From a virus (lineage: Duplodnaviria; Heunggongvirae; Uroviricota; Caudoviricetes), in the IMG/VR virus record IMGVR_UViG_3300022697_000186, positions 173,091 to 236,091 of that record: a DNA stretch of 63,001 bases. One strand, written 5' to 3'. A model generated the notes under the pieces. The model did no database searches, was not told the DNA's origin, and was given only the letters and a program-made list of their open reading frames with translations. A program made the position numbers and the translations under genes. Below are positions 4,462-53,300 of this stretch, one piece after another; within the stretch, counting starts at the first letter, position 1, and the number at the start of each line of letters is the position of its first letter.

Positions 4462-7400
4462 TTAAGTTGCTTCTAAATGAATTGCCATCATCATTTGCGT
4501 TAATAAATCTTTTTCTGGGTTTGTTGTAGCTGGCCTAAATCTAGTTTTACCTGTTTGTATAATTTCAGAAATCATCACGTTCTTAGTAGAATGGTCGGAA
4601 CTTAATGGACCAAAAAATTCTTCAATCATATAAGGTGCATTCCAAGCTAATAAACTATACATATCATACTCAGATACCTTTTGACCACCATCTCTTTTCT
4701 TTCCTTGTGTAGGTCCAAATGTTTTACCTGTATATGGTCCAGTTCCCCTAGATGCCATTTTTTTATCTGCAAGATGTTCTAATTTATGTACATATGCAAG
4801 TCCTACTGCTACAGGTTTTGTTTTCTTTTTATATTCAGGTAAAAATAAAGGTATTCTTGGAGACAAACCTAATAAAGTCATAGCCTTTAATATATCTTCT
4901 CTAGCTGGACTTTTAAATGGTGGAATTATAATTGGTATGTAACCTCTATTTTTAATTTGTCCAATTATTTTTTGGTAGTTTTTATCAGATAAGGATTTAA
5001 ACTTTTTAAATACATTTCTACTATATTCTTTATTTCTAGTACCATCCATTAATTTTAAAACTCTTTCATATATAGATGTAAATCCACCTCTAGGCATACT
5101 ACCTGCTAATGATCCTAATTTTTTAGCTATCATTCCGGTATGTAATTCTAACATTTGACCACTATTCATCCTGTTAATAACACCAATAGGATTAAAGACC
5201 ATATCTATACGTTCACCATCTGGCGTAATGGGCATGTTTTCATCTTTTTCAATTAAACCAATAACACCTTTACCACCATGTCTGTTACTTAACTTATCAG
5301 CTTTCTTTAACTCTAACCTTTGTTCAATATAAAATTCTATCATTATACCTTCAAACTTTTCATTTTTTTCTTTAAATTTTCCTTCAGGATATGATCCTTT
5401 TGCTTTAATATAAAAATCTTTAAATTCTTTATATTGAGGAATTAAAACTTTTGGTATTTTTTCTTCGTTAACATTAGAATATATTTTAATATTATTTATT
5501 ATACCTTCTTTAGATCTTAAATGCTTAAAGGATTCAACATCAGTAGCTTCATCAGAATACGTTATTAATATACCACCCTTTTCCATCTCGTTACCAACTT
5601 TTTCTATAAATACAACATCATGATCTTTTTCTAAATATATAACTTCTTTTTCTATATGTCTTGATGTGAAAAGTTTTGCTATACTTTCAGATACAACTAT
5701 ACCGTCCTCAAAATTATATCCTTTCCAAGGCATATAAGCTGTAAGTACATTTAAACCAGTTGAAATCATACCATTAATTATAGATGCTCCTTCAGATATA
5801 ATTTTGTCTTTTTTGACTTTATCCCCAACAGATACTAAATGTTTAAATTCACTTAATCCAGATTTACCTTGACCACTTTTTAGTTCTCTAGCAGTTGTAT
5901 CTATATTATGTTTTTTACCTTTACTATCTCTAATTGTAATTAAGTTAGTAGATACTGATATAACAGTACCATCTGCTGGAGATTTTTTAACAAAATTATC
6001 TGATAATAAATTTGTTAATAATGATTCATATCCAGTTTGTACAGCAGCCGGTTGTGGATTAGCTAATGGTATAGATTGTTTGCTATGTGCAGTACCCATT
6101 AGTACTCTACAACCATCATTGGATTCTACAAAAGGTATTAGTGCAGGTCCTGTACTAAGTATTTCTGTCGGTTTAACAGTTGAGCTATCTTTAACCATAA
6201 ACATACCTCTATTATTAGACAATGCTACACCAACAGATAAGTGCTGTTGTATACCAACACCAGGACCATCAGGTGTTTCAAGAGGATCAATATTCCCATA
6301 ATAAGTAGAATGTATATTACGTCCAGCCATGGGAAATGTATCTACATTAGATACACCACCAATACCTATTGGTGTAATTCTAGTCATCATAGATAATTCT
6401 TCCATTGGATTTATATTTTCTAATTGTTGTACGTTTTGAGATTGTTGAACTTCACTAAATGCTTTAGTTGGTACAATAGTAAACTGTGCAGTTTTATCAC
6501 CTCTAGCTCTTTTTTCAGCATATTCACTATAAGCTCTAGGTATTTGTTTTTCAAGTATATGAGTAAAAACTTCAGAAGTTCTTATTCTTTGTTTATCAAT
6601 ACCATTTCTATCATCTACTGTTCCTGCTATTACTTCTTTACATATATATTTAATTATAGCTGGTAGTTTAGTAGGATCACCTTTTGATTTTAACACTTCT
6701 ACTTCTATTGGTGTCACTATATTTGTCCATATTTTATCAATACCATTAAAACAATTTCGTGTACCTGTATATTTAATTAAAACCTCCATCCAAAAATCTT
6801 TAGATTTTATATTAAAATTATTAGTAGGCAATGGTATATGTTTAAGTGACTCTACTATTTCTTCTCCAATTTCATCTTTAGTATTAAATACTATATATTC
6901 AGTATTTGATAATTTTATAGAACCAGGAATATTTTCTTTAGATATATAATATGACATCTTAAAATATTTTAACATTTCATCAAAACCTAATAAATAAGCT
7001 AATGGTGCCATTATAGGGAATTTATATCCAGATATATGCATTATTAAATAAGATGTACTTTTTAATCTCTTACTTATAATTGTAATAACACTATATGATG
7101 ATTCAAATTTTCCATGATATGGTTTAAAAAAGAATATAGGATATGTTATTAATTGTGTAACCAATATTTTATTTTGACCATTAACTAAAAAAGTTCCATT
7201 CTCAGTCAGATGTGGGAGATCAATATATAGTTTATGTAACCTTCTATCTTTACCTATAAGTTCTATGTTATATCTATCTATAATTCTTTCTTTTAATTGT
7301 TCAGGACCAGACTTAATAACTTCAGATTTAATACTTTTTAATTTTAATGGTGGATCTAATGTTTCTAAACGTTTAAAAGTAGTAACTATATCTTTCTTTA

Positions 7401-8538
7401 ATAATTTTTTAAAATCATTTTTTCTTTTATCTAATACATGTGTAGGTACTTGATTATCTACTAATGATGATGGTTTAGACATTTTTGTAATTTCATCTGT
7501 TGATGTTGTAGTTACCTTTCTTCTTGGTATCATCATTTCAGAATATGTTCTAATTAATTTCTTTTTCTTTATTGGATCTTTTGCTACTTGTTTGGCTATA
7601 AATTTTGCTTTATCCATATTACCTGTAACATGATAAACTATAGCTGCTGTCATTGTTTCTTCTTTATCTATAGTGTCCACATCACTACTCATCGATGGAT
7701 CAGAATCTAAATAATTTCTAACCACATCTTTTAATATTTCTTGATTTACAATATTAGCTTCTTCTGATATTTCATCATTTTTTATAATAGGAGCATTATC
7801 TTGAGATATTTCACTTGATAAAATATCAACTTCCTCTTCCTCAACTAAATCTTCATCTATACTTTTAAGTTTTTTTAATATGTTTCTAATTCTACCTAAA
7901 TTAGGTTTTTCATTTTTGTCAAATAATAATACATATCTTCGAGACGTATGATCATATACATGTAATAACAATTTATCAAATGGTAATTCTTCAATATTAC
8001 CTTTAACCCAATTAACTAGCATTGAATATATAGGAAATACTTTTCTTTTAAATATTTTATTTGGTATATTTTCATCTAAATTCACAGAATATAATAATAC
8101 TCTTTCAAATGATTCAGTTGAAATATTAGTTGCAGTATTGACAATTCTATTAATATATGATACAGATCTACCTGTATTAAATCTTGTAAAATTAAATTTT
8201 TTAGTAGCATATCTAATAAACGTATTTATATCGTAGAAAAAATTCTTACCAACAAAATCAGAGAACTCACCAGCAAATCCTTTAATTGGTCTAAGTCCAT
8301 GAGCCATAGCTGCTTTTCTATATTCAGAAGTTAATTTGGTTATTGGTTTTTTAGTAGTTGGTACAAATAAATATCTTACATGCTGTTTTTTAATACCCAA
8401 TGATCTATATGATTTTAGAAAACTATCATTTTCAGATACGTAAATAAAACATACATTCTTACCCTCTGGTGTACCGGCTGCTGGTAGTATAAATCCATCA
8501 GTAGGTCTATATAATTTTAATTTACTAAATTGTTTCAA
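4462..8538 (-). CDS. rpoB: Phage multisubunit RNA polymerase beta subunit with long N-terminal extension
   Basis: GTFLVNG, YYGNIDPLETPDGPGVG, RVLMG..QSIPL, GYNFEDGIVVS, DKLSNRHGGKG, RMNSGQ, KLEHLADKK, GGQKVSEYD; TTG start. Confidence 0.95.
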   Translation of the reverse strand: MKQFSKLKLYRPTDGFILPAAGTPEGKNVCFIYVSENDSFLKSYRSLGIKKQHVRYLFVPTTKKPITKLTSEYRKAAMAHGLRPIKGFAGEFSDFVGKNFFYDINTFIRYATKKFNFTRFNTGRSVSYINRIVNTATNISTESFERVLLYSVNLDENIPNKIFKRKVFPIYSMLVNWVKGNIEELPFDKLLLHVYDHTSRRYVLLFDKNEKPNLGRIRNILKKLKSIDEDLVEEEEVDILSSEISQDNAPIIKNDEISEEANIVNQEILKDVVRNYLDSDPSMSSDVDTIDKEETMTAAIVYHVTGNMDKAKFIAKQVAKDPIKKKKLIRTYSEMMIPRRKVTTTSTDEITKMSKPSSLVDNQVPTHVLDKRKNDFKKLLKKDIVTTFKRLETLDPPLKLKSIKSEVIKSGPEQLKERIIDRYNIELIGKDRRLHKLYIDLPHLTENGTFLVNGQNKILVTQLITYPIFFFKPYHGKFESSYSVITIISKRLKSTSYLIMHISGYKFPIMAPLAYLLGFDEMLKYFKMSYYISKENIPGSIKLSNTEYIVFNTKDEIGEEIVESLKHIPLPTNNFNIKSKDFWMEVLIKYTGTRNCFNGIDKIWTNIVTPIEVEVLKSKGDPTKLPAIIKYICKEVIAGTVDDRNGIDKQRIRTSEVFTHILEKQIPRAYSEYAEKRARGDKTAQFTIVPTKAFSEVQQSQNVQQLENINPMEELSMMTRITPIGIGGVSNVDTFPMAGRNIHSTYYGNIDPLETPDGPGVGIQQHLSVGVALSNNRGMFMVKDSSTVKPTEILSTGPALIPFVESNDGCRVLMGTAHSKQSIPLANPQPAAVQTGYESLLTNLLSDNFVKKSPADGTVISVSTNLITIRDSKGKKHNIDTTARELKSGQGKSGLSEFKHLVSVGDKVKKDKIISEGASIINGMISTGLNVLTAYMPWKGYNFEDGIVVSESIAKLFTSRHIEKEVIYLEKDHDVVFIEKVGNEMEKGGILITYSDEATDVESFKHLRSKEGIINNIKIYSNVNEEKIPKVLIPQYKEFKDFYIKAKGSYPEGKFKEKNEKFEGIMIEFYIEQRLELKKADKLSNRHGGKGVIGLIEKDENMPITPDGERIDMVFNPIGVINRMNSGQMLELHTGMIAKKLGSLAGSMPRGGFTSIYERVLKLMDGTRNKEYSRNVFKKFKSLSDKNYQKIIGQIKNRGYIPIIIPPFKSPAREDILKAMTLLGLSPRIPLFLPEYKKKTKPVAVGLAYVHKLEHLADKKMASRGTGPYTGKTFGPTQGKKRDGGQKVSEYDMYSLLAWNAPYMIEEFFGPLSSDHSTKNVMISEIIQTGKTRFRPATTNPEKDLLTQMMMAIHLEAT

Positions 8539-8539
8539 C

Positions 8540-10024
8540 TTATTTTCCTTTATCTACTAATGAAGAACCAAATAACACACTTTCAATAGGACTTTCTGGT
8601 CCTCTATCAGTAATTAAACCTTGATTGATAGCTTTCGAGAAATCTTCGAATGCTAGTCCAAGAGGCCAACTTATAACACCTGGTAATTTTTTAATACTTA
8701 GTAATATAGGATCATATGGTTTTTTAAGACGAGCAAGTATTTGTGGGTTACTTTTATTTCTTAATATATTAGATAGTACTATCTCTAAATGTACACTATC
8801 ATAATTTCTAGTATGAGAAAAGTTTTTCCAAAATTTTAAGAATAGACTTGGAACATCACCCCATGGACTTTTACCACCAACAAAAGAATCAAAGTCTCTA
8901 GCAAGTTTTGTATAATCTTCTTGTTTAGGTTTAACATGAAACATTTCGTCATCTTTATTATAAGTAATAGATATAATGTTATCTGCTACTTCAGTATCTT
9001 CAGTTACATAAACAGTGGTTTCATTCTCTAATCTTACAGAGATATCAACATCATCAATTATTATATCAAAATATCCAGTAGGTAATATGTATTTATTATC
9101 TTCTTGTTTTATTTTAATACCTGACCTTTCAAAAATATTAGTATCAATATTTAAAGTGATAAATTCAGATCTGCATACCATTATTTCTTTAACCTGTTCT
9201 AATGATCTTCTAATTTGATCTTCTAATTTATCATCAATTGTTTCCATAATACTTTTAATTAAATCTAATCTTTCAAGTATAACTGCTCCACCAGTATGAA
9301 AACTATTATGATTTTGAATACAACCTAAAAGGAAATCATTGGTGTTTGTTTTAATGTCATATACATAAGAATTCCAATTAGATGTTTTTCTAGTTCTCAA
9401 AATAGTCACATAATTTTTAATGATTGTGTCAGTTTTTTCTAAATTAATATCAATTGTAAAATAAACTTTATCATCTATATTAATTAAATCTATAGTCGAT
9501 ATAAAACCTACTCTATCACATATTAATTTAATTTGTTGTATCAAATTATAACTTTCAATTTTAATATTTAAAGATTTTGTCACTTTATAAAATAATCTAA
9601 TAAATTTTTCTAACCATTCTTTATCATAATTAATAAAATTTGGTTCCAGTCTTAAAGTTGATAAATTATCATTTCTAACTATTTCTGACTTTATTTCAGA
9701 ATTAATAATTGCACTTACAACATGTTCTTGATTTGATTTAGGAATAATATTATTATCATTTTGAGTAATAGAATTGTCAATCCAAATTTTGTCATTAATC
9801 TCTAAAGTTTTAGCTTCAATTTCTAAAATTTCTTTATTTCTACTAATAAATAAAGGATGATTTTCTTGACAAAATATTGTATGACCTGTTTCTGTAATTA
9901 ATAATAACATATCACATACTGGTAAATGTCTCTGTATAGAACTTGTAGTAACGGCACCACTTTGTCCTTGTATTTCAGTTACTAAATCAATAGTTTCTAA
10001 TTGTATATTTTCTTCTACTATCAC
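8540..10024 (-). CDS. rpoC: Split intein C-fragment fused to RNAP beta' C-terminal part
   Basis: Intein motifs GHTIFCQENHPLF and VYDIKT..QNHN, followed by SFHTGG (RpoC TFHxGG) and later DSVHLEIVL and LAFE. Confidence 0.9.
   Translation of the reverse strand: MIVEENIQLETIDLVTEIQGQSGAVTTSSIQRHLPVCDMLLLITETGHTIFCQENHPLFISRNKEILEIEAKTLEINDKIWIDNSITQNDNNIIPKSNQEHVVSAIINSEIKSEIVRNDNLSTLRLEPNFINYDKEWLEKFIRLFYKVTKSLNIKIESYNLIQQIKLICDRVGFISTIDLINIDDKVYFTIDINLEKTDTIIKNYVTILRTRKTSNWNSYVYDIKTNTNDFLLGCIQNHNSFHTGGAVILERLDLIKSIMETIDDKLEDQIRRSLEQVKEIMVCRSEFITLNIDTNIFERSGIKIKQEDNKYILPTGYFDIIIDDVDISVRLENETTVYVTEDTEVADNIISITYNKDDEMFHVKPKQEDYTKLARDFDSFVGGKSPWGDVPSLFLKFWKNFSHTRNYDSVHLEIVLSNILRNKSNPQILARLKKPYDPILLSIKKLPGVISWPLGLAFEDFSKAINQGLITDRGPESPIESVLFGSSLVDKGK
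9305..10024 (-). mobile_element. IntC of atypically split intein (240 aa) with degenerate LAGLIDADG-like remnant
   Basis: Block B-like (HTIFCQENHPLF), block F (VYDIKT) and terminal His-Asn, with Ser+1 at 9302-9304. Confidence 0.85.
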
Positions 10025-12093
10025 TATACTGCCATACCATATTTATAATTGCCGCAGTCCCATATTCTATCGAAACCGTTTAGCTGCATGTTTTGCCATT
10101 CAGTTAAAGTTGAATCAAATGATTCTAATAAATCTTTCAATTTATGTTTCTGATATTTCATTCTGTTTTCTCGACCATTATTTTTTAAATAAAAATAGTT
10201 AGGATTAGTTAGCTCTTTATATTTAAATCCTGAATTTAAATATCCGGTACCTTCACCATATCTAGCATCAGCATAAGTGATAATAGAACTACCAGGATTT
10301 AACTTTTTAAAGTGAGAAAGAAGCTTAGATAATCCTCCTATAACTGATGTATTTATTTTGTTACAAAAACGAAGTATTTCGTAATCATATTTCTTATTAA
10401 ACCTAGATTTTCCCATAGAAATCATCGAAATTAGAGCGTTTTCAAAATAGATTCCAATATGTGTACATTGTATACCACCTTGTAAATGATTATCAAATAA
10501 AAACTGTTTAGCTATTTTATTGTCAACCTTCTGTATTTGGCATTTTCTGGCAAATACTTTATTAGGTGATTTACCCATTTTGTTTAAAAGAATAGATTTC
10601 ACAATATCTCTTTTGTTTAACCACTCATCCTCAAATATCTGTATTAAATGAACACCTTTAGACTTAGCTAAAAGATGTTTATCCTGATGGTAGTTTTTGT
10701 TAACTCCCATTCTTTCACTGTGCCAGTAAAGACCATTGTATTCAATTCCTAATTTAATTTCCGGTATATAGATGTCTATTTCTTTTCCATCTAAAATTTC
10801 TCTATTCCCAGATTCAACATTGGAATAGTACTGTTTTACAAAGGTTAGAACTTCTTGTTCACCAACTGATGTTCCATTTAATTTAGGATAACAGGTTGGA
10901 CATCTAGGTATATGTCCATTCATTAAATGATCCTTAAAATTTGTAGTACATTTAATACAAATAAAAGGATATTTTATATAGTAATTACAAATTCCATTAT
11001 ATTCTTTTAAATTAAATAAAGGAATAACTAATCCTTTTAATCTATCTGAATTTAATAATCTATTATATGAAGTTTCTAGCATTTTGAATTTAAATTCATT
11101 ACTCTGACTAAAATATTTAGTTCCATATTTTTCTAAATTAGTATTTTCTATTTTTTCTCTTATTTCTTGCACTTGACTAGGATTATCTACACCATATTTG
11201 TTTCTGAATGAATCTACAAAAAGTTTCTTTCCTTTTTCAGTTTTCATAGGATTTTTATTTCCAAAAATTTCTAAATTAGTTTTTTCAATTTTTTCTCTAA
11301 TTGCTGGAGAATGAAATGAATATCCTCCGTTATTTATATACGAGGTCTTTTTTATTTTTTCTTTAATTATATCATTTTGATTTGCATATTCTACACCATA
11401 TTTTTCTAAACAAGTTCTCTTGGATTTTTCTTTAAATTCTTTAACTTGAGAAACGTTTTCTACACCATATTTCTCTTTACATGTTTGTTTAAATTTCTCT
11501 TTTACAACTTCAGATTTCATAGGGTTATCTACACCATAATTTTCTAAAGATGTTTTTTTCTTTTTATCCTGAAATTCTTTAACTTGAGAAATGTTTTCCA
11601 CATTATATTTAATTTTCAATGTATCTTTGTATTTCTTTTTATATGATTTTGTTTGAGAATTATGTTCTACTCCATATTTTTTTAATAAGGTATTTTTATA
11701 CTTTTTTTGTATTTCTTTATTTTGAAAAGCGTTTTCTACACCATATTTTTCTAAACAAGTTCTCTTGGATTTTTCTTTAATTTCTTTAGATTGTGAAGCG
11801 TGTTCAACACCATATCTTTCTAAATTAGTTTTCTTAGATCTATTTCTAATTATTTTAGATCTAGTTACACATTGTATAGAACAAAATTCAGCATAACCAT
11901 TAAATATTCCACGAAACTTAGTAGATTTATTACAATTCTCATTTTTACAAATATTATCTTTTTTATTATTTAAAATATATAAATAATAATCCTCTTTAGA
12001 AGGATGAGTGTCTTTTTTATTTTCACAACTAATATGCTTTGATAGAGCTGCTTTTGTAGTAACTTTTTTACTACAAATTTCACATTTAAACAT
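10024..12093 (-). CDS. Free-standing repeat-array endonuclease (Zn finger + about 11 x 23-aa repeats + Vsr/PD-(D/E)XK-like nuclease + GNAT/Mom-like C-terminus), inside fractured rpoC
   Basis: YGVE repeats, EIDIYIPEIKLGIEYNGLYWHSE, YEILRFC..GGLSKLL..ITYADARY, GFDRIWDCGN; coupled to both neighbours (TAAATG, TAGTG). Confidence 0.85.
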   Translation of the reverse strand: MFKCEICSKKVTTKAALSKHISCENKKDTHPSKEDYYLYILNNKKDNICKNENCNKSTKFRGIFNGYAEFCSIQCVTRSKIIRNRSKKTNLERYGVEHASQSKEIKEKSKRTCLEKYGVENAFQNKEIQKKYKNTLLKKYGVEHNSQTKSYKKKYKDTLKIKYNVENISQVKEFQDKKKKTSLENYGVDNPMKSEVVKEKFKQTCKEKYGVENVSQVKEFKEKSKRTCLEKYGVEYANQNDIIKEKIKKTSYINNGGYSFHSPAIREKIEKTNLEIFGNKNPMKTEKGKKLFVDSFRNKYGVDNPSQVQEIREKIENTNLEKYGTKYFSQSNEFKFKMLETSYNRLLNSDRLKGLVIPLFNLKEYNGICNYYIKYPFICIKCTTNFKDHLMNGHIPRCPTCYPKLNGTSVGEQEVLTFVKQYYSNVESGNREILDGKEIDIYIPEIKLGIEYNGLYWHSERMGVNKNYHQDKHLLAKSKGVHLIQIFEDEWLNKRDIVKSILLNKMGKSPNKVFARKCQIQKVDNKIAKQFLFDNHLQGGIQCTHIGIYFENALISMISMGKSRFNKKYDYEILRFCNKINTSVIGGLSKLLSHFKKLNPGSSIITYADARYGEGTGYLNSGFKYKELTNPNYFYLKNNGRENRMKYQKHKLKDLLESFDSTLTEWQNMQLNGFDRIWDCGNYKYGMAV

Positions 12094-13578
12094 TTATAAT
12101 TTATCCTTTTCTTCCCAAATATCATCCATTGATATTAATTTTTTATTTTTATTTATTAAACCTACACCACATTTCATAATCTTTTCCGCCAGACTCCCCA
12201 CTTCTTGTGCAGCTATAATACCCACATTAGGGGATGTTATTTGCTTTATTAAATCCCCGTAACATGTTCTACATATTTTTTTATTTCTACAAAATACAGG
12301 ACTTCTTAATTTGATTTTTTGACCAATCATTTTTTCTGAAATTTTAGTTATTATACCTTTATCATTTAATGTATATCTACCTGGCATTCTATTAAACATT
12401 GGTTTTGTTAATTTAATATTTAAAGTAGATTTTGTTCCACAGTCTTTAACTTTTAAATCAGCTTCAACATCACTTAAAATATATATCATTTTGCGATAAG
12501 TATAGCCACCTTGAGCAGTATTTAAAGCCCTATCAATAACACCTTTACGAGCACCTGATGCTGCATCAAAATAATTTTGAGGAGAATATCCATCATTAAA
12601 TGAATCAGTTATAGGTGGTAATGGATTACCCATTGGATCAGCTATTACACCTTTAGCTACCATAACCTGTCTTAATTGACTAATACCTTTTGATGCACCT
12701 GATTTAACTGCATAATATAAATCGTTATCAGTTTTCTTTAAATGCTTTAATAGTTCAATTTCCATCTGATGTTCAATTTCCATTTGGTCAGATAATGTTT
12801 TTGCCTTACCCAATTGTTGTTTTAATTCTATTAAGGTGTCAGGTAGTTCCATTTGATCTAAAGAAAATGTTTTAGGTTCTATTGTTGCATACTTAAAACC
12901 TAATAACATAAGTTTGTTAATTGTTTTACCAAACATATCACTACTTTTAGCAAGAATTTTACTTAATATATTATCCACTACTTTTTTAGTAATTTCTTCA
13001 TCTACAAACTCAAATTCTTTTGGTAATTCATTATTAAATATAATACGTCCAGCAGTAGTTCTTCTTTTACTACCTTTAAATACCATATCAACTAATTGTG
13101 TTATATTTTCTTGTTCTGCTTGTTCTATATTTTTAATTTTTTTAGGTAACGTTTTACGTCTTGGATCAGCGGTTAAAGTAAATAAACCTAATAACATTTC
13201 TTTACTTATTTCAAAATTAGGTTTATTAATTCCAGTTTTACTAGTAGCAGTAACCATTCTGTCTCTAGCTTCTTTTTGTGCTTCTTCAGATATTGGTGCA
13301 TATATTGCTAATGTATCACCGTCAAAATCTGCACCATATGGTCCTACAGAAGATGGATGTATACTTATTGAAACACCGTCAATAATTTTTACAAACTGTG
13401 CTTGAATTCTACCGGATTCAGTATTAGGATCTCTTTTACTTAATACAATTTTACCCTTTTCTTCAATCTCTCTAATTGCTACATCAAAAACCACATCATA
13501 TATGGATTTTGGAACTTTATAACCTTTAGCTATAAATTTAAGAACTTGCCTTATCTCTTCTGTATTACTTTTTTCCAC
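12094..13578 (-). CDS. rpoC: RNAP beta' central catalytic fragment ending in a short split-intein N-fragment
   Basis: YGADFDGD catalytic loop, SGASKG, GARKGVID..TAQGGYTYRK bridge helix, KDCGT, LRSPVFC..ICRTCYG, VGIIAAQEVG; GTG start. Confidence 0.95.
   Translation of the reverse strand: MEKSNTEEIRQVLKFIAKGYKVPKSIYDVVFDVAIREIEEKGKIVLSKRDPNTESGRIQAQFVKIIDGVSISIHPSSVGPYGADFDGDTLAIYAPISEEAQKEARDRMVTATSKTGINKPNFEISKEMLLGLFTLTADPRRKTLPKKIKNIEQAEQENITQLVDMVFKGSKRRTTAGRIIFNNELPKEFEFVDEEITKKVVDNILSKILAKSSDMFGKTINKLMLLGFKYATIEPKTFSLDQMELPDTLIELKQQLGKAKTLSDQMEIEHQMEIELLKHLKKTDNDLYYAVKSGASKGISQLRQVMVAKGVIADPMGNPLPPITDSFNDGYSPQNYFDAASGARKGVIDRALNTAQGGYTYRKMIYILSDVEADLKVKDCGTKSTLNIKLTKPMFNRMPGRYTLNDKGIITKISEKMIGQKIKLRSPVFCRNKKICRTCYGDLIKQITSPNVGIIAAQEVGSLAEKIMKCGVGLINKNKKLISMDDIWEEKDKL
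12097..12171 (-). mobile_element. IntN of atypically split intein (25 aa, CGVGLINKNKKLISMDDIWEEKDKL)
   Basis: Begins with Cys exactly where RpoC similarity stops (..EKIMK|C), and similarity resumes at S-F-H-T-G-G after IntC. Confidence 0.75.
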
Positions 13579-13590
13579 AACTGTCTACCT

Positions 13591-13911
13591 TTACAAATTT
13601 GTAGATTTATTAAACCGTTCTTTAACCTTTATTAACTCATTACTAAATTTTTCATTAATTTTTGATATTTCAATCGCTCTTTTTTCAGGATCTAATATTC
13701 TATCTAAAGCTTTTACTGCTTGTCTTTTTCTTTTCATAAGTGAGAGCCTTGCTAGTAAAATTTTTCGTTGTATACTTTGTTGAATAGCTAATCTTTTAGC
13801 AGGATCTTTTATAATTTTAGAAGCTAAATTACTATTAGTTATTTTAGAAATAACATTCTTTATATTTTTTGCTCCTATTTCATTAACATAAACTTCTGAT
13901 ACATATTTCAT
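13591..13911 (-). CDS. Basic helical protein with YVSE leader, lying between two beta' fragments
   Basis: Starts MKYVSEVYVNE; 106 aa, K/R-rich. Confidence 0.7.
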   Translation of the reverse strand: MKYVSEVYVNEIGAKNIKNVISKITNSNLASKIIKDPAKRLAIQQSIQRKILLARLSLMKRKRQAVKALDRILDPEKRAIEISKINEKFSNELIKVKERFNKSTNL

Positions 13912-13916
13912 TATAA

Positions 13917-14834
13917 TTAAACCTCATCAATTAATTCTAAACGTTTACCCAAAAAGTCTTTAACAGCTGTATGAAATTCTTCTGGAATATTTTTGGCATA
14001 TTTACTGTTAACTAAACCATATATTAATTGATTCTCAAATAAACTACTTGCCATATCTAATGGTATTCCAATTTGTCCTAAATCTAAACTTGGGTCTGGA
14101 GATATTACACCTCTAGCAGAAAAATCAACTCTCTTACCAAGAATCATTTTTCTAATCATTCCTTGTTTTTTAGAAATAGTAACTCTAGATAATTCATATA
14201 ATTCTCTAATTAACATTTGCATTCTATATGCAAGTATATTATATAATTCACCAGATACACCTTTCAACTGACTAGAGTGTCTTATTATTTTTTGATATAA
14301 CTCTGTAAGTACATCAGCATCTTCTTCTGAACCATCTAAACCTAATGGTCTATATTCAGGAGATATAATAATTAATTTATCTATAAAAAAGGTACCTTTT
14401 TTTATATTATTATTTATCATTTTTACTAATTCATTTCTGTTACCAGTACCATCTTTACTAAGTCTAAATTTTATTTTATCCATATTTTTAACTAGACTAG
14501 TAAAACCAGATAGTTTTCCATTTTCATCTTCTTCTAAAGTACCATCTTCAGATATTTTAAATGAAGTATCTCCAGCAATTAATTTAACAATTTTTCTTTC
14601 AATTGTTTTGGATATTATATCATATAATGAGGGATGTATTACTGTACTATTTAAATCTACCCATGATAAATTTTGCTTTCTTTCTTTAGAACCATCCATT
14701 CCAAAGATTTCTTCGGAATATAATCCTTGAGGGTGGAATGTTTGGGATTTACCTAAATAGATTTGAGGACTAGTGACGGGTCCTTTTAATTTTCTACTTT
14801 TAATAATCTTGTTAACATTAAAAATTTTTATCAT
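13917..14834 (-). CDS. rpoC: RNAP beta' N-terminal fragment, lacking the Zn-ribbon
   Basis: GLYSEEIFG, IISPEYRP, LYQKII, KQGMIRKMILGKRVDFSARGVISPDP. Confidence 0.92.
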   Translation of the reverse strand: MIKIFNVNKIIKSRKLKGPVTSPQIYLGKSQTFHPQGLYSEEIFGMDGSKERKQNLSWVDLNSTVIHPSLYDIISKTIERKIVKLIAGDTSFKISEDGTLEEDENGKLSGFTSLVKNMDKIKFRLSKDGTGNRNELVKMINNNIKKGTFFIDKLIIISPEYRPLGLDGSEEDADVLTELYQKIIRHSSQLKGVSGELYNILAYRMQMLIRELYELSRVTISKKQGMIRKMILGKRVDFSARGVISPDPSLDLGQIGIPLDMASSLFENQLIYGLVNSKYAKNIPEEFHTAVKDFLGKRLELIDEV

Positions 14835-16657
14835 TTTTCACTCTGAATATAAGAATAATTACCACAGTCCCATATTCTGTCGAAACCATTTAATTGCATA
14901 TTTTGCCATTCAGTTAAAGTTGAATCAAATGTTTGTAGTTTGTCCTTTAATTTATGTTTTTGATATTTCATACGGGATTCTCTACAAACCTGTTTATTTA
15001 AATAAAAGTAATTTGGTTTACTTAATTCTTTATATATAAATCCACATTTCTCATATCCTTTACCTTCTCCATATCTTGCGTCAGCATAAGTGATAATAGA
15101 ACTAGGATTATACTCTTTCTTAAAATGCTTCAAAAGTTTAGATAAACCACCCGTAACTGAATAGTTTAATTTATTACAAAATCTTAAAATTTCATAATCA
15201 TACTTCTTGTTGAATCTAGATTTACCCATGGTAATCATAGATACTAATTCATCTTTATAAAATAAACCAATATGAGTTCCATTGATTTCACATTGTAAAT
15301 GATTATCAAATAGAAATTGTTTAGCTATCTTGTTCTCTACTTCTTTAATTTTACATTTACGTGCGAATATCTTAATGGGAGATTTACCCATTTTATTTAA
15401 AATGATACTCTTAACTATATCCTGTTTATTAAACCACTCATCCTCAAATATCTGTATCAAGTGAATACCTTTAGATTTTGCAAGTAAGGTTTTATTCTGA
15501 TGATATTTAGAATCTTTATTACCACCTATTTCACTATGCCAATAAAGTCCATTGTATTCGATACCTAACTTTAGTTCTTCTATATAAATGTCAATTTCTT
15601 TACCTTCTAAAATTATTCTATCTGATTTAGCATTTGGGTAGTACTTCTGTATAAAAGATAGTACTTCTTGTTCAGATTTTGATGTTCCATTTAATTTAGG
15701 ATAACAAGTTGGACATCTAGGAATTTTACCATTATCTAAATGATCCTCAAATATTATTTTACATTTAGTACATTTCCACGGATATTTATTATGATTAATA
15801 GATCCTATGTAATTTTCTAATTTAAATAAAGGTGTAACTAGATCTTTTAATCTATCTGAATTAAGAAGATTTTCAAAACCACTTAATAAATGAGTTTTCT
15901 TTATTTTTTGTTGTATCTTTTTTGATTGTGATACATTTTCTACACCGTATTTATCTAATAAAGTTTTCTTTATTTTCTTTTGAACTTCTTTAACTTGAAA
16001 AACACTCTCAACACCATATTTTTTTAAATTAGTTTTCTTTATTTTATTCTTAATACTTTCCAATTTTAGAGTAGTACTTACACCATATTTCTTTAAACAA
16101 GTTTGTTTAATTTTTTCTTTCACAATTTTAGAAGAACTTGGATGTTTAGTACCATATTTCTCTAAACTTTTTTTTTCCTTATTTTCTTTGACTATGGGAG
16201 ATTGAGAATAATATTCTACACCATATCTTTCTAAACAGGTTTTTTTCTTTTTATCTTGAAATTCTTTAGATTTAGATGGATTTTCAACACCATATCTATC
16301 TTTACATGTTTGTTTAAATTTCTCTTTAATTATATTATTAGACATTGAACACTTAGTAGAACAAAATAAATGATATCCATAAGATATATTTTTAAAAGTT
16401 ACATTAGAATTACATTCTATACAATTAGGTTTAACAGTTAATCCATTTAATAAAAAATAAATTCTTTCTGCTAATGAACATTTTTCACTTAAACTATTTT
16501 TTGTTTCTTTTATAATTAAATCTGAAATATTATCATCAAAATATTTAAAATTTTTAATCGTATGAAAATATATTTTAGGACCTATAATTTTTGGATCTGT
16601 TGTTTTAAATTTAGATATTAAATAGTTATCAATAATTTCTATTATTGGATTTATCAT
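14831..16657 (-). CDS. Repeat-array endonuclease paralog (6 repeats)
   Basis: Same nuclease and C-terminal module as 10024-12093; ATGA overlaps on both sides. Confidence 0.85.
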   Translation of the reverse strand: MINPIIEIIDNYLISKFKTTDPKIIGPKIYFHTIKNFKYFDDNISDLIIKETKNSLSEKCSLAERIYFLLNGLTVKPNCIECNSNVTFKNISYGYHLFCSTKCSMSNNIIKEKFKQTCKDRYGVENPSKSKEFQDKKKKTCLERYGVEYYSQSPIVKENKEKKSLEKYGTKHPSSSKIVKEKIKQTCLKKYGVSTTLKLESIKNKIKKTNLKKYGVESVFQVKEVQKKIKKTLLDKYGVENVSQSKKIQQKIKKTHLLSGFENLLNSDRLKDLVTPLFKLENYIGSINHNKYPWKCTKCKIIFEDHLDNGKIPRCPTCYPKLNGTSKSEQEVLSFIQKYYPNAKSDRIILEGKEIDIYIEELKLGIEYNGLYWHSEIGGNKDSKYHQNKTLLAKSKGIHLIQIFEDEWFNKQDIVKSIILNKMGKSPIKIFARKCKIKEVENKIAKQFLFDNHLQCEINGTHIGLFYKDELVSMITMGKSRFNKKYDYEILRFCNKLNYSVTGGLSKLLKHFKKEYNPSSIITYADARYGEGKGYEKCGFIYKELSKPNYFYLNKQVCRESRMKYQKHKLKDKLQTFDSTLTEWQNMQLNGFDRIWDCGNYSYIQSEK

Positions 16658-17067
16658 TTAAGTTTAATATTTACCTGTTTTTTAAGAATGTTCATTACTT
16701 CATCACTAACATTATGAGTTCTTGGAACCTTTAATATAGTAACTGGATTTTCAACACTATTCATATAAAATTTAATTTTCTCAATAAACTTTATATACTT
16801 ATCTTCTCCAGTCATTGTATGAAGTCTTTTAGCGTTCATTAAACTCTTTTTAAGTACTGGTATTGAAATGGCATTAGCTGGAGATAGAATAGGAAATATA
16901 GGTACTCCTTTTTTATCTTTAGCTAGAAATGCACCAGGGTTTGATTTATACAATGATGCTCTATTAGTCTTACTTTTAAAGAATTCTAAATCATTTTGTA
17001 GATTATTTTCTTTAAGTATACCTTTTAAATCTTTTAAAATATTTTCCATTAAAATTATATTATCCAT
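16654..17067 (-). CDS. Hypothetical protein
   Basis: 137-aa ORF overlapping both neighbours; N-terminal LME/LKE motifs. Confidence 0.65.
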   Translation of the reverse strand: MDNIILMENILKDLKGILKENNLQNDLEFFKSKTNRASLYKSNPGAFLAKDKKGVPIFPILSPANAISIPVLKKSLMNAKRLHTMTGEDKYIKFIEKIKFYMNSVENPVTILKVPRTHNVSDEVMNILKKQVNIKLK

Positions 17068-17971
17068 ATTCTTCCTCCGTTGCTCCCCATAAACTATCAG
17101 TAATTTTATTACCTACTGATCCTAGCCATTTTACAACTGCTCCAATTTTACCTCTAGAAAGTAAACTTGATAAAGATGAAGAGTTTGTTACATTTTTAAC
17201 TACTTGTTTTATTTTAGGATCTTTATCTACATATCCTAATTCAGACATTCGTTTATTACATTTACCAGAACTAACACCACGACATACTAACAATGATGTT
17301 TCTTTATAAATTTTCTTCATAGCTGACATATAATATTTTTTATATCCCATTTTAATTGCAAATGATTTAGAGTTATAACCATAAACTTTATCTGAATCTG
17401 TTTTAATTATTAAATTTTGACCAAGTTTCGCCATTATATTGTAATAAATTTCTGCTAATGTATCTGATTTAGATTTTAAGAACATATAAATCACAGTTGC
17501 TATAGTAGCACCAATGGCTAAATCTATTGTTTTTTTACTAACCTTTTTTACTAATTGAAATTCACCATATTCATGTAATATAATTGAAATTAATTCATTC
17601 TTATTAAGTAAATCTGCTAATTCTGTAGTATAATATACAGTATTTTGAAAAGCAAATGAGTTAGCAACTCCCTGTTTAGTTAAATGTCTTATTTGTATTT
17701 TAGTATTTCCTATTATTTTTTGAACAATCTCCGTTAAATTATCATCCACCCAACTATTTTTATGAATACTAGCTACTTTCACTAGCAAAGTTGTGCCAAT
17801 ACTGCCAAATATCATTTTAGTAAAATCAAAAATATTACCTAATAGTTTTTTTTGAATACCTTCTTGTAAAGTTGATATACATTCAACTAAATTTACATCA
17901 TTTTCTATTAATAGGTTTATATCATTTTCTAAAATATTATTAATCATGTTCTCAGAAACAAAGGAATTCAT
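17060..17971 (-). CDS. Divergent M48-like zinc metalloprotease homolog with FVSEN leader (HEYGE, second His missing)
   Basis: ANSFAF..VYYTTEL..NELISIILHEYG parallels ORF 31097-31912; likely start at the ATG ending at 17971, after GGAG. Confidence 0.6.
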   Translation of the reverse strand: MNSFVSENMINNILENDINLLIENDVNLVECISTLQEGIQKKLLGNIFDFTKMIFGSIGTTLLVKVASIHKNSWVDDNLTEIVQKIIGNTKIQIRHLTKQGVANSFAFQNTVYYTTELADLLNKNELISIILHEYGEFQLVKKVSKKTIDLAIGATIATVIYMFLKSKSDTLAEIYYNIMAKLGQNLIIKTDSDKVYGYNSKSFAIKMGYKKYYMSAMKKIYKETSLLVCRGVSSGKCNKRMSELGYVDKDPKIKQVVKNVTNSSSLSSLLSRGKIGAVVKWLGSVGNKITDSLWGATEEEYG

Positions 17972-49890: not shown

Positions 49891-50397
49891 TTAAATCACT
49901 TCAAACTCAAAATCATAATCTTTTAATAGTTTTTGATACAATTCTAGCATTTTATCTTCAATTTTCTTACGATAATCAAGATCTTTAGAATCTCTAATTC
50001 CATCATCATAAATATAATTGTTTGACTTTATAGTTTTAAATATAATTTTATCATATGTATTCATAAATGACTTAGCTGTTTCTAATTTACGATTAGCTAA
50101 CTCATAATAACCCCCAACATATGTATATGCTATAGAATCAATTATTGATCTATCACAAATTACAATATCATACCACTCACAATATTCAATTTCAAATTTC
50201 ATTTGTTCAGCAAAAATCCATAATTGAGACATTTCAGTTGAATCTTTATTAATAGGTAAAGGACACCTTCTAGCTGTTTCAGCTATAATACCAACAGTTT
50301 TATCAGTATTATCTTTTTTAAATTTAGTAGCTAATTCAAATACTGATGTAGTCTTTCCCGTACCATGTGTGCCAGAGAATGCAATCTTCATGAACAT
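49891..50397 (-). CDS. NadR/AAA_28-like P-loop nucleotide kinase
   Basis: IAFSGTHGTGKTT, ETAR, ICDRSIID. Confidence 0.8.
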   Translation of the reverse strand: MFMKIAFSGTHGTGKTTSVFELATKFKKDNTDKTVGIIAETARRCPLPINKDSTEMSQLWIFAEQMKFEIEYCEWYDIVICDRSIIDSIAYTYVGGYYELANRKLETAKSFMNTYDKIIFKTIKSNNYIYDDGIRDSKDLDYRKKIEDKMLELYQKLLKDYDFEFEVI

Positions 50398-53300
50398 GCT
50401 CCCTCATTCTGGGAACAATTATAACACCAATAACAACTTCCTTTTTTTACCATTATATGACCACAATTTGAACATGCTGGTCCATCTAAATTAGAATTAA
50501 TATTAATTGTTTCTAATTGTTTCACAATTTCAGGTTCTTTATTATCTTTAGATTTTAAACCCAATTGAATTTGATCAGATTCCAAAAGAAATTTCATACC
50601 TATAAATTTACCAATATAATCTACAATAGATGTGGCAGTTCTTATATCTGGATTACCTGTAAATCCTGCAGGTTCAAATCTTTGATTCATTAATTTTCTA
50701 ACTATATCTTTTAAAGGAACACCGTATTGTAAATTAATACTAATCATAGTTGCAAAAGAATCAAATATTCCAGATAATGTACTTCCCTGTTTTGAAATCC
50801 TAACAAATATTTCTCCTAATTTACCATCATTATATAAACCACAATGTAAATAACCTTCAACACCAGCAATTGAAAATTTGTGATTTATTGATGTTCTAGT
50901 TGTTGGTAGTTTCTTTCTAAATGGAATACATGTTTTACACATTTCTGGACGTTGTCCATCAGTTGTATCAAAAAATAATTCTTCTTTTTTCTTACTAGTA
51001 TCTTCTCTTTTAAATGCTGAAAATGCTTTTGAACCTTCTCTAAATACAGTAATACCTTTTAGTCCCATTTTCCAAGCTGTAACATATACATCATGTACAT
51101 CATCAACTGAAACATTTTCAGGCATATTTATTGTTTTAGAAATAGCACCTGACAAAAACGGCTGTACTGCAGCTAACATTTTAATGTGAGCCATATAATC
51201 AATACATCTTACACCACCATTAGGGATATTTGCTGTGTCAAATATAGCCAAATGTTCTGGTATCAATTCAGTATTTTCTAAATGTCCATCTCTTTTAAGT
51301 ATAGAAATATAACGTTCAGATTCATTTTCACTATAACCCAAATTAATTAAAGATTGTTTTACTTCATCATTAACTATTTTAATTATAGCACCACCACTAC
51401 CTGCTAAAGATTTTTCTTTAACTAACAAAAACTCTGGTTCAATACCTGTAGTAGAACAACCCATAAGAAAAGAAGTTGTACCAGTTGGAGCAAGTAGTGT
51501 GACTTGTGCATTTCTTATTTTTGAATCAGGTTTTAAGAATTCAGCATTTTTCCAACAATCTTTAACATGTTTCAATAATGTTTCAGTAATTCTTTTATAA
51601 TTAGAACCAGATGCTAACAATGATGCTGCATCATTATGTTTATTTAAAATTCTATGAACATGAGATTTATTTTCTTCATATTTTTCAAACGATCCCATTC
51701 TTTCAGCTAGTTTATTACTAGCATTATAAGCATAACCTGTAAGTAATGCAGTCAATGATGCAGCAACTGTACGACCTTCATTATTACCATAAGGAAACCC
51801 TAACCACATAAGAGTAGAACCTAAATTAGAATAACCTAAACCTAATGGTCTATAATCATGTGAATTTTTTGTAATTCTTTTAGTAGGATAAGAAGAGCAA
51901 CCTACAAGTATATCTTGAGCTATAACCATAGTATTAATAATATCTTTATATTTTTTAATATCAAAATTTACATTACCATCTTTTCCTTTGGAAAATAATC
52001 TAAGTAAATTAATTGAAGCCAAGTTACAAGCAGAATCCTGAACGAAGGCAAATTCCCCACAATTCATAGTATTAACAAATCTAATTTTATTATTCTTTGA
52101 TTTTTCACCTATAATATAATAATTATGAAATTCATCAACTGTTCCATTATAAACATCTTCTTTTCCAATAAGTTCAACAGAAACAACTTTGTGATTATAA
52201 TTTCTACAATCTTCAATAAATTTATCCCAATTATTATTCCAATATTTATTGATAATATTACTATGTATAAATTTTTTAATTCCCTTTTCTTTTAAACACT
52301 TTTTGTATCCATTCCAATCATTTTTATTTATATAATTGTGAATTGATAAAATTTCACTTCCACATATTAAAGCCTTATTTTTAGTAGAAATTATTGCAGC
52401 ATTAACTTTTGATATTCTACCTTCTTTTGTACCAGACCAAATTTTTGATGATAAAGATATTTTCTTTTTAGTAGAATCTGTAGTCTTATAAGATTTTAAT
52501 TTTTCTTTTCTTGAACATTTACCACAAATACTAATTTCTCTATATTTATAATTAGTTATTAAATTATTATTACATTTTTCGCAGGTTTTTTGAATTAAAA
52601 CAACATTAGAACCATGAACATTTTTAATATTAGTATTATATCCTTGTGATAAAGCTTGTTGGTATTGTTCTAAAATAAAATTAGTAATTCCCTCAAAAGA
52701 ATCAAATCCAAGTTCTAAAGCACACCATTTAGATAGTCCAGATATACTTCCGTTTAATTGTTTAGATCTCCATATACCCATATTTTCAAATGATGGTATA
52801 TTTATATTTTCTGTATAATTCTTCCATTCTTTTTTAGTAAACTTTCTTCCAAGTTTTTTTGTTAAATTTAAAGCATGATTTCTTATTTCTTTATTATCAA
52901 TCCCTAAATACATACCATTTTTATCGGCAGAAACAGATTTGCTCATTTTATTCTTATAATTTTTCCATTTTTCTTCAGACCATTCAGTTTGAGCTCGAAC
53001 CATAGGATTATTTTTACCAAACATATTATGACAATGCAATTTATCGTGATTTTTTTTCTTCATTAATTCTAAGTTTTCTATAGAATTATTAAAACTATTA
53101 TAATCTTTATGATGTATGACCTCATCACTTTTTATTTTTATACTATTATAAAATTCATACATCATTCTATGTTCAGATGTATCATAAGAACAAGAACTAA
53201 CCCAAGCATAACCTGATTTATTACCAGATATTTTTTTCCCTAAAGATCTAATATTTCTAGTCATACTTTTAATACTATCATTATTTTTTAAATTTTTAGC

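Follow-up and report, generated by a model that had tools for sequence, protein, structure and literature searches.

A putative atypically split intein, broken by a free-standing homing endonuclease gene, at the trigger loop of a jumbo phage RNA polymerase

How might a phage obtain an intact catalytic subunit of RNA polymerase (RNAP) when the gene for it is interrupted at the start of the trigger loop by an intein that is itself encoded in two pieces, with a nuclease gene in between? This question is raised by an uncultured jumbo phage (IMG/VR record IMGVR_UViG_3300022697_000186, 69% complete), of which we analysed a stretch of 63,001 nucleotides (positions 173,091 to 236,091 of the record), hereafter referred to as the window. 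[quoted passage not shown] An ORF check verified the window coordinates of all ORFs described here, and the features of the locus are as follows:

12172..13578, minus strand: N-extein, the beta' catalytic fragment (residues 1-469), ending ...AEKIMK; Rpb1 domains 2, 3 and 5; ADFDGD Mg site
12097..12171, minus strand: IntN, 25 aa (Cys1 ... Leu25), then a TAA stop at 12094-12096
10024..12093, minus strand: free-standing homing endonuclease gene, 689 aa; DUF7487 repeat array, then putative EDxHD/Vsr-like nuclease domain, then conserved C-terminal domain
9305..10024, minus strand: IntC, 240 aa; GTG start; blocks B (CQENHP), F (VYDIKT) and G (QNHN)
9425..9775, minus strand: decayed LAGLIDADG homing endonuclease remnant in IntC (about residues 84-200), at the position of the intact LAGLIDADG domain of relatives
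8540..9304, minus strand: C-extein, the beta' C-terminal fragment, 254 aa from SFHTGG (Ser+1), plus stop
4462..8538, minus strand: following gene of the operon, encoding the RNAP beta subunit (1358 aa); Pfam Rpb2 domains 3 and 6
13917..14834, minus strand: N-terminal fragment of the same beta' subunit, 305 aa, encoded separately and free of an intein; Pfam Rpb1 domain 2; phrog_2986
14831..16657, minus strand: gene for a 608-aa paralogue of the nuclease, inserted between other genes upstream of the beta' N-terminal fragment

The ORF of the catalytic fragment (13578-12094, minus strand) encodes 494 aa and terminates in AEKIMK followed by CGVGLINKNKKLISMDDIWEEKDKL and the stop; the Cys1 codon of IntN is found at 12171-12169, which gives the IntN length of 25 aa. 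The C-fragment ORF (10024-8540, minus strand), likewise of 494 aa, reads ...VYDIKTNTNDFLLGCIQNHN up to the intein end and continues with SFHTGG, which gives an IntC of 240 aa. The nuclease gene begins immediately past the stop of the N-fragment (TAA ATG), and its own stop, TAG, overlaps the GTG start of IntC by 1 nt (the shared G), this start being without an obvious Shine-Dalgarno sequence. A short IntN that ends in a stop is combined with an IntC that possesses its own start as well as blocks B, F and G, which is the arrangement of an atypical split. The C-terminal half had been placed two genes later; the halves are indeed separated, but by one gene only, that of the nuclease, after which the IntC ORF comes directly.

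The same note had located the insertion at the trigger-loop junction of beta' and had regarded the joined exteins as the counterpart of the bacterial RpoC trigger-loop sequence. Both statements are borne out by intein-less homologues: P0016, P0019 and P0020 read EK[IV]MK-SFH[TL]GG at the junction, thus providing independent confirmation, and the junction stretch of P0016 aligns with bacterial beta' QLTMR-TFHTGG, i.e., the start of the trigger loop. The N-fragment is homologous to the intein-less beta' proteins P0016 and P0020, and the alignment with bacterial beta' extends to QLTMR, and the C-extein has Foldseek matches to the C-terminal beta' pieces of two non-virion RNAPs, those of AR9 (7s00_F) and phiKZ (8que_D). 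The predicted spliced product would comprise 723 aa, and the intein-less relatives have 721-726 aa.

The position of the break was mapped on a model of a contiguous homologue, the L010 intein. Its AF2 model (pLDDT 88, pTM 0.91) matches TliVMA, PI-SceI and PI-PfuI in Foldseek (E 1e-17 to 1e-11), which indicates a HINT horseshoe fold, and the model of the window IntC (pLDDT mostly 80-94 over residues 10-240) matches both inteins associated with homing endonucleases and mini-inteins, including those of TFIIB and GyrA. In the L010 model, a helix at residues 20-26 is followed by a loop at 27-30 and the next strand at 31-34; IntN spans strands beta1 and beta2 and helix alpha1, and both its end and the start of IntC fall in the loop. 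On this model, the break lies after helix alpha1, at the site termed S2 (defined in PMC13014065), as in the AceL-TerL and GOS-TerL inteins. Moreover, IntN aligns without gaps to residues 1-25 of the contiguous inteins and IntC begins at about position 24; by this alignment, no intein sequence is lost at the break.

Conservation of the splicing residues extends across the split forms. The nucleophile at position 1 is Cys in the window and Cys or Ser in 23/23 unique IntN tails (21-31 aa, counted after excluding P0049, an intein-less truncated protein), and His56, Asp223, His239 and Asn240 are invariant in 14/14 split IntCs. The +1 residue, Ser241 in the window, is Ser in 13 and Thr in one of these 14, and the same position in intein-less alleles is also Gly, Ala or Leu. 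Against the Pfam Intein_splicing model, IntC matches over residues 40-240 with 27 bits, below the cut-off of 35.8 bits. Two departures from usual intein motifs are shared by the family. Block B has Gln in place of the Thr found in most inteins, and since the contiguous relatives have the same Gln, this is a family trait; block A of IntN had been taken as divergent, a claim that does not hold, as [CS]xxGL[VI] is the family norm, unbroken inteins included. As a measure of selection we used region-wise identity, synonymous sites being saturated at about 40% protein identity. Mean pairwise identity is 0.41-0.43 in the HINT core, 0.38 in the extein and 0.27 in the endonuclease remnant; by this measure, HINT core and polymerase are equally conserved, while the LAGLIDADG remnant decays. 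The remnant itself had been recognised correctly: about 115 poorly conserved residues take the place of the intact two-motif LAGLIDADG domain of contiguous relatives, which is detected as PF14528 in P0077.

The protein encoded between the halves matches Pfam DUF7487 (1e-57) and phrog_3339, 'homing endonuclease' (2e-143). In a phmmer comparison with 3r3p (I-Bth0305I) it scored E 1.1e-5, with Asp and His at the positions where the crystallised mutant D196A/H213A has Ala; Pfam REase_MTES_1575 was matched below the cut-off only. Judged by these matches, the 689-aa gene product is an EDxHD/Vsr-like homing endonuclease. Its family numbers 12 copies in the genome, and the paralogous 608-aa gene is missing from the equivalent place in L001. 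A collinear orthologue (45%) lies between the intein halves in L007.

Relatives, recovered by alignment-based scans of viral contigs only, place the window among several states of the same site. Contiguous inteins at this site, for which the earlier note had proposed a search, were found (L001, L003-L005 and L009-L025): unbroken LAGLIDADG inteins of 376-392 aa occupy the identical site in about 20 metagenomic phage loci. The break seen in the window is shared by at least 23 distinct N-fragments and, on the IntC side, by about 29 clusters (50% identity), and hence is not due to chance; each split relative has a stop and a start of its own, at an identical position. The halves flank the same nuclease gene in L002 and L007, and in L006 the end of this gene abuts IntC. 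In L008, the IntC gene is preceded by a DNA ligase gene, and neither the nuclease nor a beta' N-fragment was found within 3 kb upstream of it. The assignment of IntN to IntC partners is based on the window, L002 and L007, together with P0028/P0003 and P0046/P0014, which were paired by equal contig size. A tblastn search with the IntC protein gave no match in 50,697 phage records, and a scan of viral contigs with a single protein as the query found nothing. P0024, a candidate split form with an intact LAGLIDADG domain, was rejected: it nests with the contiguous L016, in which its first residues (MGKNYRK) are internal, and its start was probably mis-called.

Intein and extein trees were built by a quick method, the C-extein alignment having 248 columns. 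The split inteins form one clade and their host exteins do not (AU p 1e-63, for a group that was defined by the trait but named after the tree had been seen). Hence, either the cassette is mobile between alleles or its loss is precise. Among near-identical exteins, some carry the intein and others do not, and the lineages sharing the break are 37-47% identical to one another. In the intein tree the split clade sits on long branches, which could partly reflect relaxed constraint.

Given these results, we postulate, with a probability of about 0.8, that the locus encodes a functional, naturally atypically split class-1 intein (S2) in beta' of one of the phage's two multisubunit RNAPs. Conservation, fold mapping and gene order lead us to infer that trans-splicing is needed to rebuild the trigger loop, the 25-aa head and the 240-aa tail most likely rejoining it by protein trans-splicing. 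An ancestral LAGLIDADG-bearing intein would have resided between Lys and Ser of ...IMK/SFHTGG, at the start of the trigger loop, and the free-standing gene of the EDxHD/Vsr-like homing endonuclease would then have inserted in the DNA for the loop after alpha1, creating a stop after about intein residue 25 and a new start. The three genes would be made as separate proteins, and the catalytic fragment (494 aa) would dock with its 25-aa IntN tail into the near-complete HINT domain of IntC. Cys1 would undergo the N-S acyl shift, to be followed by attack of Ser+1, cyclisation of Asn240 and the O-N shift, and the outcome would be a beta' of 723 aa whose trigger loop is intact (AEKIMK-SFHTGG). The old LAGLIDADG domain is decaying, and the new nuclease would probably drive the spread of the whole IntN-nuclease-IntC cassette. 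The wider proposal, that the EDxHD nuclease replaced the decaying LAGLIDADG as the homing engine, that the three parts spread as one cassette and that the clade is a ready natural library, is more tentative, and we put it at slightly less than even odds.

In phages, RNAP subunits of this type frequently occur as natural fragments that assemble non-covalently, and therefore covalent ligation is not logically required. The intein halves could thus serve as a clasp that does not splice but holds the beta' fragments together non-covalently, leaving the trigger loop interrupted by a folded HINT domain or cut on one side only. The large subunits of jumbo-phage RNAPs commonly come in pieces, as does this beta' with its further, intein-free break, and the mobE-split NrdA of phage Aeh1 offers a precedent (PMC3045599). 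However, Cys/Ser1, the block-B His, the block-F Asp, the His-Asn pair and Ser/Thr+1 are invariant across a deep clade, even though the +1 position varies freely in intein-less alleles. The trigger loop has an established role in catalysis, to which it contributes a catalytic His, and a 265-aa domain beside this residue would be expected to block the reaction. Hence, we consider a clasp of this kind unlikely.

A more drastic possibility is that insertion of the nuclease inactivated beta', so that the gene is decaying and the phage is served by its second RNAP or by that of the host. There is a second beta'-like gene in the genome, outside the window, in a record that is incomplete. Nevertheless, all pieces keep long open frames and conserved catalytic motifs, the same break persists in diverged lineages with the extein under clear constraint, and phages of the phiKZ/AR9 type require both polymerases; loss of function therefore appears highly improbable. 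Even less credence can be given to removal or bypass of the nuclease gene at the RNA or translation level (a group I or II intron, bypassing or a frameshift fusion), followed by cis-splicing. EDxHD nucleases do occur in group I introns, e.g., I-Bth0305I (PMC3239194), and the genes of the window abut without a spacer, but no Rfam match for an intron or other RNA was obtained at E <= 1 over positions 8000-17500. The gene junctions, moreover, differ among relatives (a 1-nt overlap in the window, an 11-nt one in L007 and an extra 89-aa ORF in L002), the stop and start recur at the same point in every split relative, and the DNA ligase gene precedes IntC in L008.

The layout is of a known kind, is new for this protein, and is part of a large natural family. 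AceL-TerL and GOS-TerL are active atypical split inteins with the S2 site (Thiel et al., 2014, and Bachmann and Mootz, 2015, as cited in PMC13014065 and PMC11766414). The window intein shares with them a short IntN (25 aa here and in AceL-TerL, 37 aa in GOS-TerL), the S2 break after alpha1, an IntC that holds every motif but N1, and the Cys1 nucleophile, and they differ in having a mini-type IntC of 104-122 aa, in contrast to 240 aa with a vestigial LAGLIDADG here, and a +1 Cys instead of Ser or Thr. All of them lie in fractured phage genes (Dassa et al., 2009, PMC2677866), in a terminase there and in the RNAP beta' trigger loop here; the resemblance is architectural only. With fractured genes bearing Vsr-like EDxHD nucleases (Dassa et al., 2009; I-Bth0305I, Taylor et al., 2011, PMC3239194) the locus shares a nuclease-domain match, the catalytic Asp and His and the phage setting. 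However, the break in most of the published cases lies at the canonical site of endonuclease insertion (IntN 88-105 aa, IntC 33-54 aa), whereas here the nuclease would have entered a second site of an intein already carrying a LAGLIDADG domain, and it is much larger (689 aa), with the DUF7487 repeat array and an extra C-terminal domain. VidaL and PolB16, which serve in semisynthesis, are likewise naturally split and have an IntN of 15-16 aa only, and some relatives of the window intein, with P0026 and P0044 among those that have Ser1, combine Ser1 with Ser/Thr+1 and would, like PolB16, do without a catalytic cysteine (PMC13014065), but those inteins are split after strand beta2 (S1), not after alpha1, and reside in other host proteins. 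The gene of NrdA, an essential enzyme of Aeromonas phage Aeh1 (PMC3045599), is also split by a free-standing homing endonuclease gene, with function kept; there, unlike here with its complete, conserved splicing motifs, no intein is involved and assembly is non-covalent.

If splicing takes place, one of the two phage RNAPs gets its catalytic subunit only via trans-splicing, an unusual dependence for a core transcription enzyme. The family presents all stages, from the empty site through the LAGLIDADG intein and the intein broken by a second nuclease to non-adjacent halves without a nuclease by IntC, and thereby makes the gene-breaking model of split-intein origin directly testable in this beta' intein family; if the cassette proposal is true, it would show how atypical (S2) split inteins arise. 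To our knowledge, few natural inteins have an IntN that is short enough to be made by peptide synthesis, and the clade, with its clusters and IntN lengths as given above, supplies some two dozen diverged pairs of IntN and IntC, a part of which have no catalytic cysteine. If the wider proposal is true, the Ser1/Ser+1 pairs would be cysteine-independent, with PolB16 as their only precedent among natural atypically split inteins.

The window is the final 63 kb of an IMG/VR virus record that spans 236 kb and is 69% complete according to CheckV; G+C content in the window is 26%, and the minus strand carries nearly all long ORFs, including the RNA polymerase operon that holds the split intein.

The RNA polymerase operon as read along the minus strand (coordinates, strand, feature)
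first in the operon, minus: 137-aa ORF
16657-14831, minus: 608-aa nuclease gene
14834-13917, minus: beta' N-terminal fragment, 305 aa
13591-13911, minus: 106-aa ORF between the 305-aa and 494-aa beta' fragments
13578-12094, minus: beta' catalytic fragment, 494 aa
12171-12097, minus: IntN, 25 aa
12093-10024, minus: 689-aa nuclease gene
10024-8540, minus: 494-aa ORF (IntC and C-extein)
10024-9305, minus: IntC, 240 aa
8538-4462, minus: beta subunit gene, 1358 aa

The catalytic fragment ends in AEKIMK followed by Cys, 24 residues and TAA, immediately after which comes the ATG of the nuclease gene; the last base of the nuclease TAG doubles as the first base of the GTG with which the next ORF starts. 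In this ORF (10024-8540), Pfam Intein_splicing is matched over residues 40-240, and blocks B (CQENHP), F (VYDIKT) and G (QNHN) are followed by SFHTGG. At the junction, homologues that lack the intein (721-726 aa) have EK[IV]MK-SFH[TL]GG, and the predicted spliced beta' would comprise 469 + 254 = 723 aa. Alignment of one such homologue pairs the junction with bacterial beta' QLTMR-TFHTGG, which in RpoC is the first helix of the trigger loop and includes the catalytic His. The ORFs, the intein blocks and the empty-allele junction agree with the earlier note, which had described a 25-aa IntN and a 240-aa IntC split across the trigger-loop junction, and the 689-aa gene abuts both halves, as expected for the free-standing nuclease it had placed between them.

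The C-terminal beta' piece has a fold like that of non-virion RNA polymerase subunits from the phages AR9 and phiKZ. Outside the window (G000:C1:144631-145839, within an 897-aa open frame) lies a second gene of beta' type, with 33% identity, and one is also present in the genome of a related locus, L002. Phages of the phiKZ/AR9 type possess two multisubunit polymerase sets; the second gene thus indicates a second, phiKZ/AR9-like set and, together with the fold, identifies a jumbo phage equipped with two such polymerases. The other break in beta' of the window, between the 305-aa and 494-aa fragments, is intein-free; this gap holds unrelated small genes that are different in every relative (106 aa in the window, 194 aa in L001, 108 + 120 aa in L002, three ORFs in L003).

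Four kinds of allele emerged from protein searches and from alignment-based scanning of contigs from viruses and metagenomes: empty sites, contiguous inteins, window-type breaks and unlinked halves. Contiguous inteins, relatives that the earlier note had proposed to look for, occupy exactly the window's site at ~20 loci (376-392 aa, two LAGLIDADG motifs), some of which encode a full-length, unsplit beta' of 1378-1390 aa. Window-type breaks occur in L002 (IntN of 23 aa, nuclease of 572 aa, an 89-aa ORF, then IntC), L007 (IntN of 27 aa, nuclease of 695 aa, then IntC) and L006, where the nuclease ends immediately upstream of IntC. Further split forms are represented by 23 unique IntN tails, 21-31 aa in length, and by ~29 IntC clusters at 50% identity, the clusters being counted where the match begins <=20 residues from the protein N-terminus. 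In L008, an NAD-dependent DNA ligase gene precedes the IntC gene, and neither nuclease nor beta' N-fragment was found within 3 kb upstream.

Conservation supports the view that the window intein would splice. His56, Asp223, His239 and Asn240 are invariant in 14 split forms (37-47% identical to the window), all with Ser or Thr at +1, and every IntN tail begins with Cys or Ser. In empty alleles, Gly, Ala or Leu is tolerated at +1; hence, retention of the nucleophile is confined to intein-bearing alleles. Mean pairwise identity is 0.41-0.43 for the HINT core and 0.38 for the polymerase extein but only 0.27 for the endonuclease remnant, in line with the decay that the earlier note had proposed for it. 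Removal of the nuclease gene at the RNA level is argued against by the gene junctions, which are unlike one another among relatives; no intron or other RNA family of Rfam was matched at E <= 1 over positions 8000-17500.

The closest contiguous intein is that of L010, and its AF2 model (pLDDT 88, pTM 0.91) matches solved endonuclease-bearing inteins. Residues 1-25 of the intein, which span two strands and helix alpha1, align gap-free with the window IntN, and IntC starts at residue ~24, eight residues upstream of the conserved LET(K) strand; therefore, the nuclease gene entered the loop after alpha1 with intein sequence undeleted. For IntC alone, structure is predicted confidently over residues 10-240, the first six residues being disordered. 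The break coincides with S2, the site at which AceL-TerL and GOS-TerL, both of which trans-splice, are split in nature (PMC13014065; PMC11766414), and one fractured terminase gene has the same unusual break point (Dassa et al., PMC2677866).

The 689-aa nuclease consists of a DUF7487 repeat array, an I-Bth0305I-like domain and a conserved C-terminal domain. It matches I-Bth0305I (PDB 3r3p; E 1e-5), the EDxHD/Vsr-like prototype, and has both catalytic residues, Asp and His. Twelve copies of the family occur in the genome (including 10024-12093 and 14831-16657 of the window), with C-terminal halves 64-76% identical and differing N-terminal repeat arrays, a pattern suggestive of either modular retargeting or gene conversion between copies. 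The nuclease between the L007 halves and that of the window are collinear from end to end (45% identity), which fits an old, position-specific association.

The intein tree places the 17 split forms in a single clade (SH-aLRT 99), whose sister group is made up of the contiguous inteins from L010, L001 and L003. The C-extein tree intermixes split, contiguous and empty alleles: for example, contiguous L010 adjoins empty P0034 (0.06 changes per site each), and split P0012 falls within a well-supported empty-allele group. Monophyly of the split-form exteins is rejected by an AU test (delta lnL 271, p 1e-63). The trees imply that the break arose once and that the cassette has since either passed from one allele to another or undergone precise loss. 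We infer that the EDxHD nuclease is the present homing agent and that the LAGLIDADG domain is decaying.

Other inteins were also observed. At 50388-54584 of the window (minus), a contiguous intein that includes an HNH endonuclease domain (Pfam Intein_splicing, 43.8 bits; HNH_3) interrupts an NrdJ-like class II ribonucleotide reductase of 1398 aa. Three extein residues downstream of the trigger-loop site (SFH|C...HN|TGG), L003:7960-9100, L028, P0009 and P0013 have a second, unrelated LAGLIDADG intein, and the trigger-loop His thus lies between two inteins; of these, the upstream one is split and the downstream one contiguous in P0009 and P0013. L001:6280-7900 is a contiguous intein within the beta' catalytic DFDGD motif, with terminal Asp, not Asn. 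Since P0022 and P0023 start with the C-terminal end of a DFDGD-type intein (...QD|TM), this intein occurs split too; the window has none at its beta' DFDGD site. L029-L040 have an intein at the same ...HN|[ST]FH[ST]GG site, with open frames of >2000 aa upstream of the junction and cellular-looking composition; hence, the site may also be occupied in bacterial RpoC. On one 44.6-kb contig, P0032 and P0018 have the same intein apparently broken within the LAGLIDADG domain (N piece with a 223-aa intein tail, C piece beginning inside the endonuclease), either a canonical-type split or a frameshift.

Taken together, sequence comparisons support the reading of the earlier note. The window case is of a known kind, a fractured gene in which an EDxHD nuclease accompanies an atypically split (S2) intein; no published intein at the trigger-loop site of a phage RNA polymerase was found in the literature. 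What is new is the host protein and insertion site, the vestigial first endonuclease kept within an IntC of 240 aa, a family of this size and depth, and the complete evolutionary series inside it.
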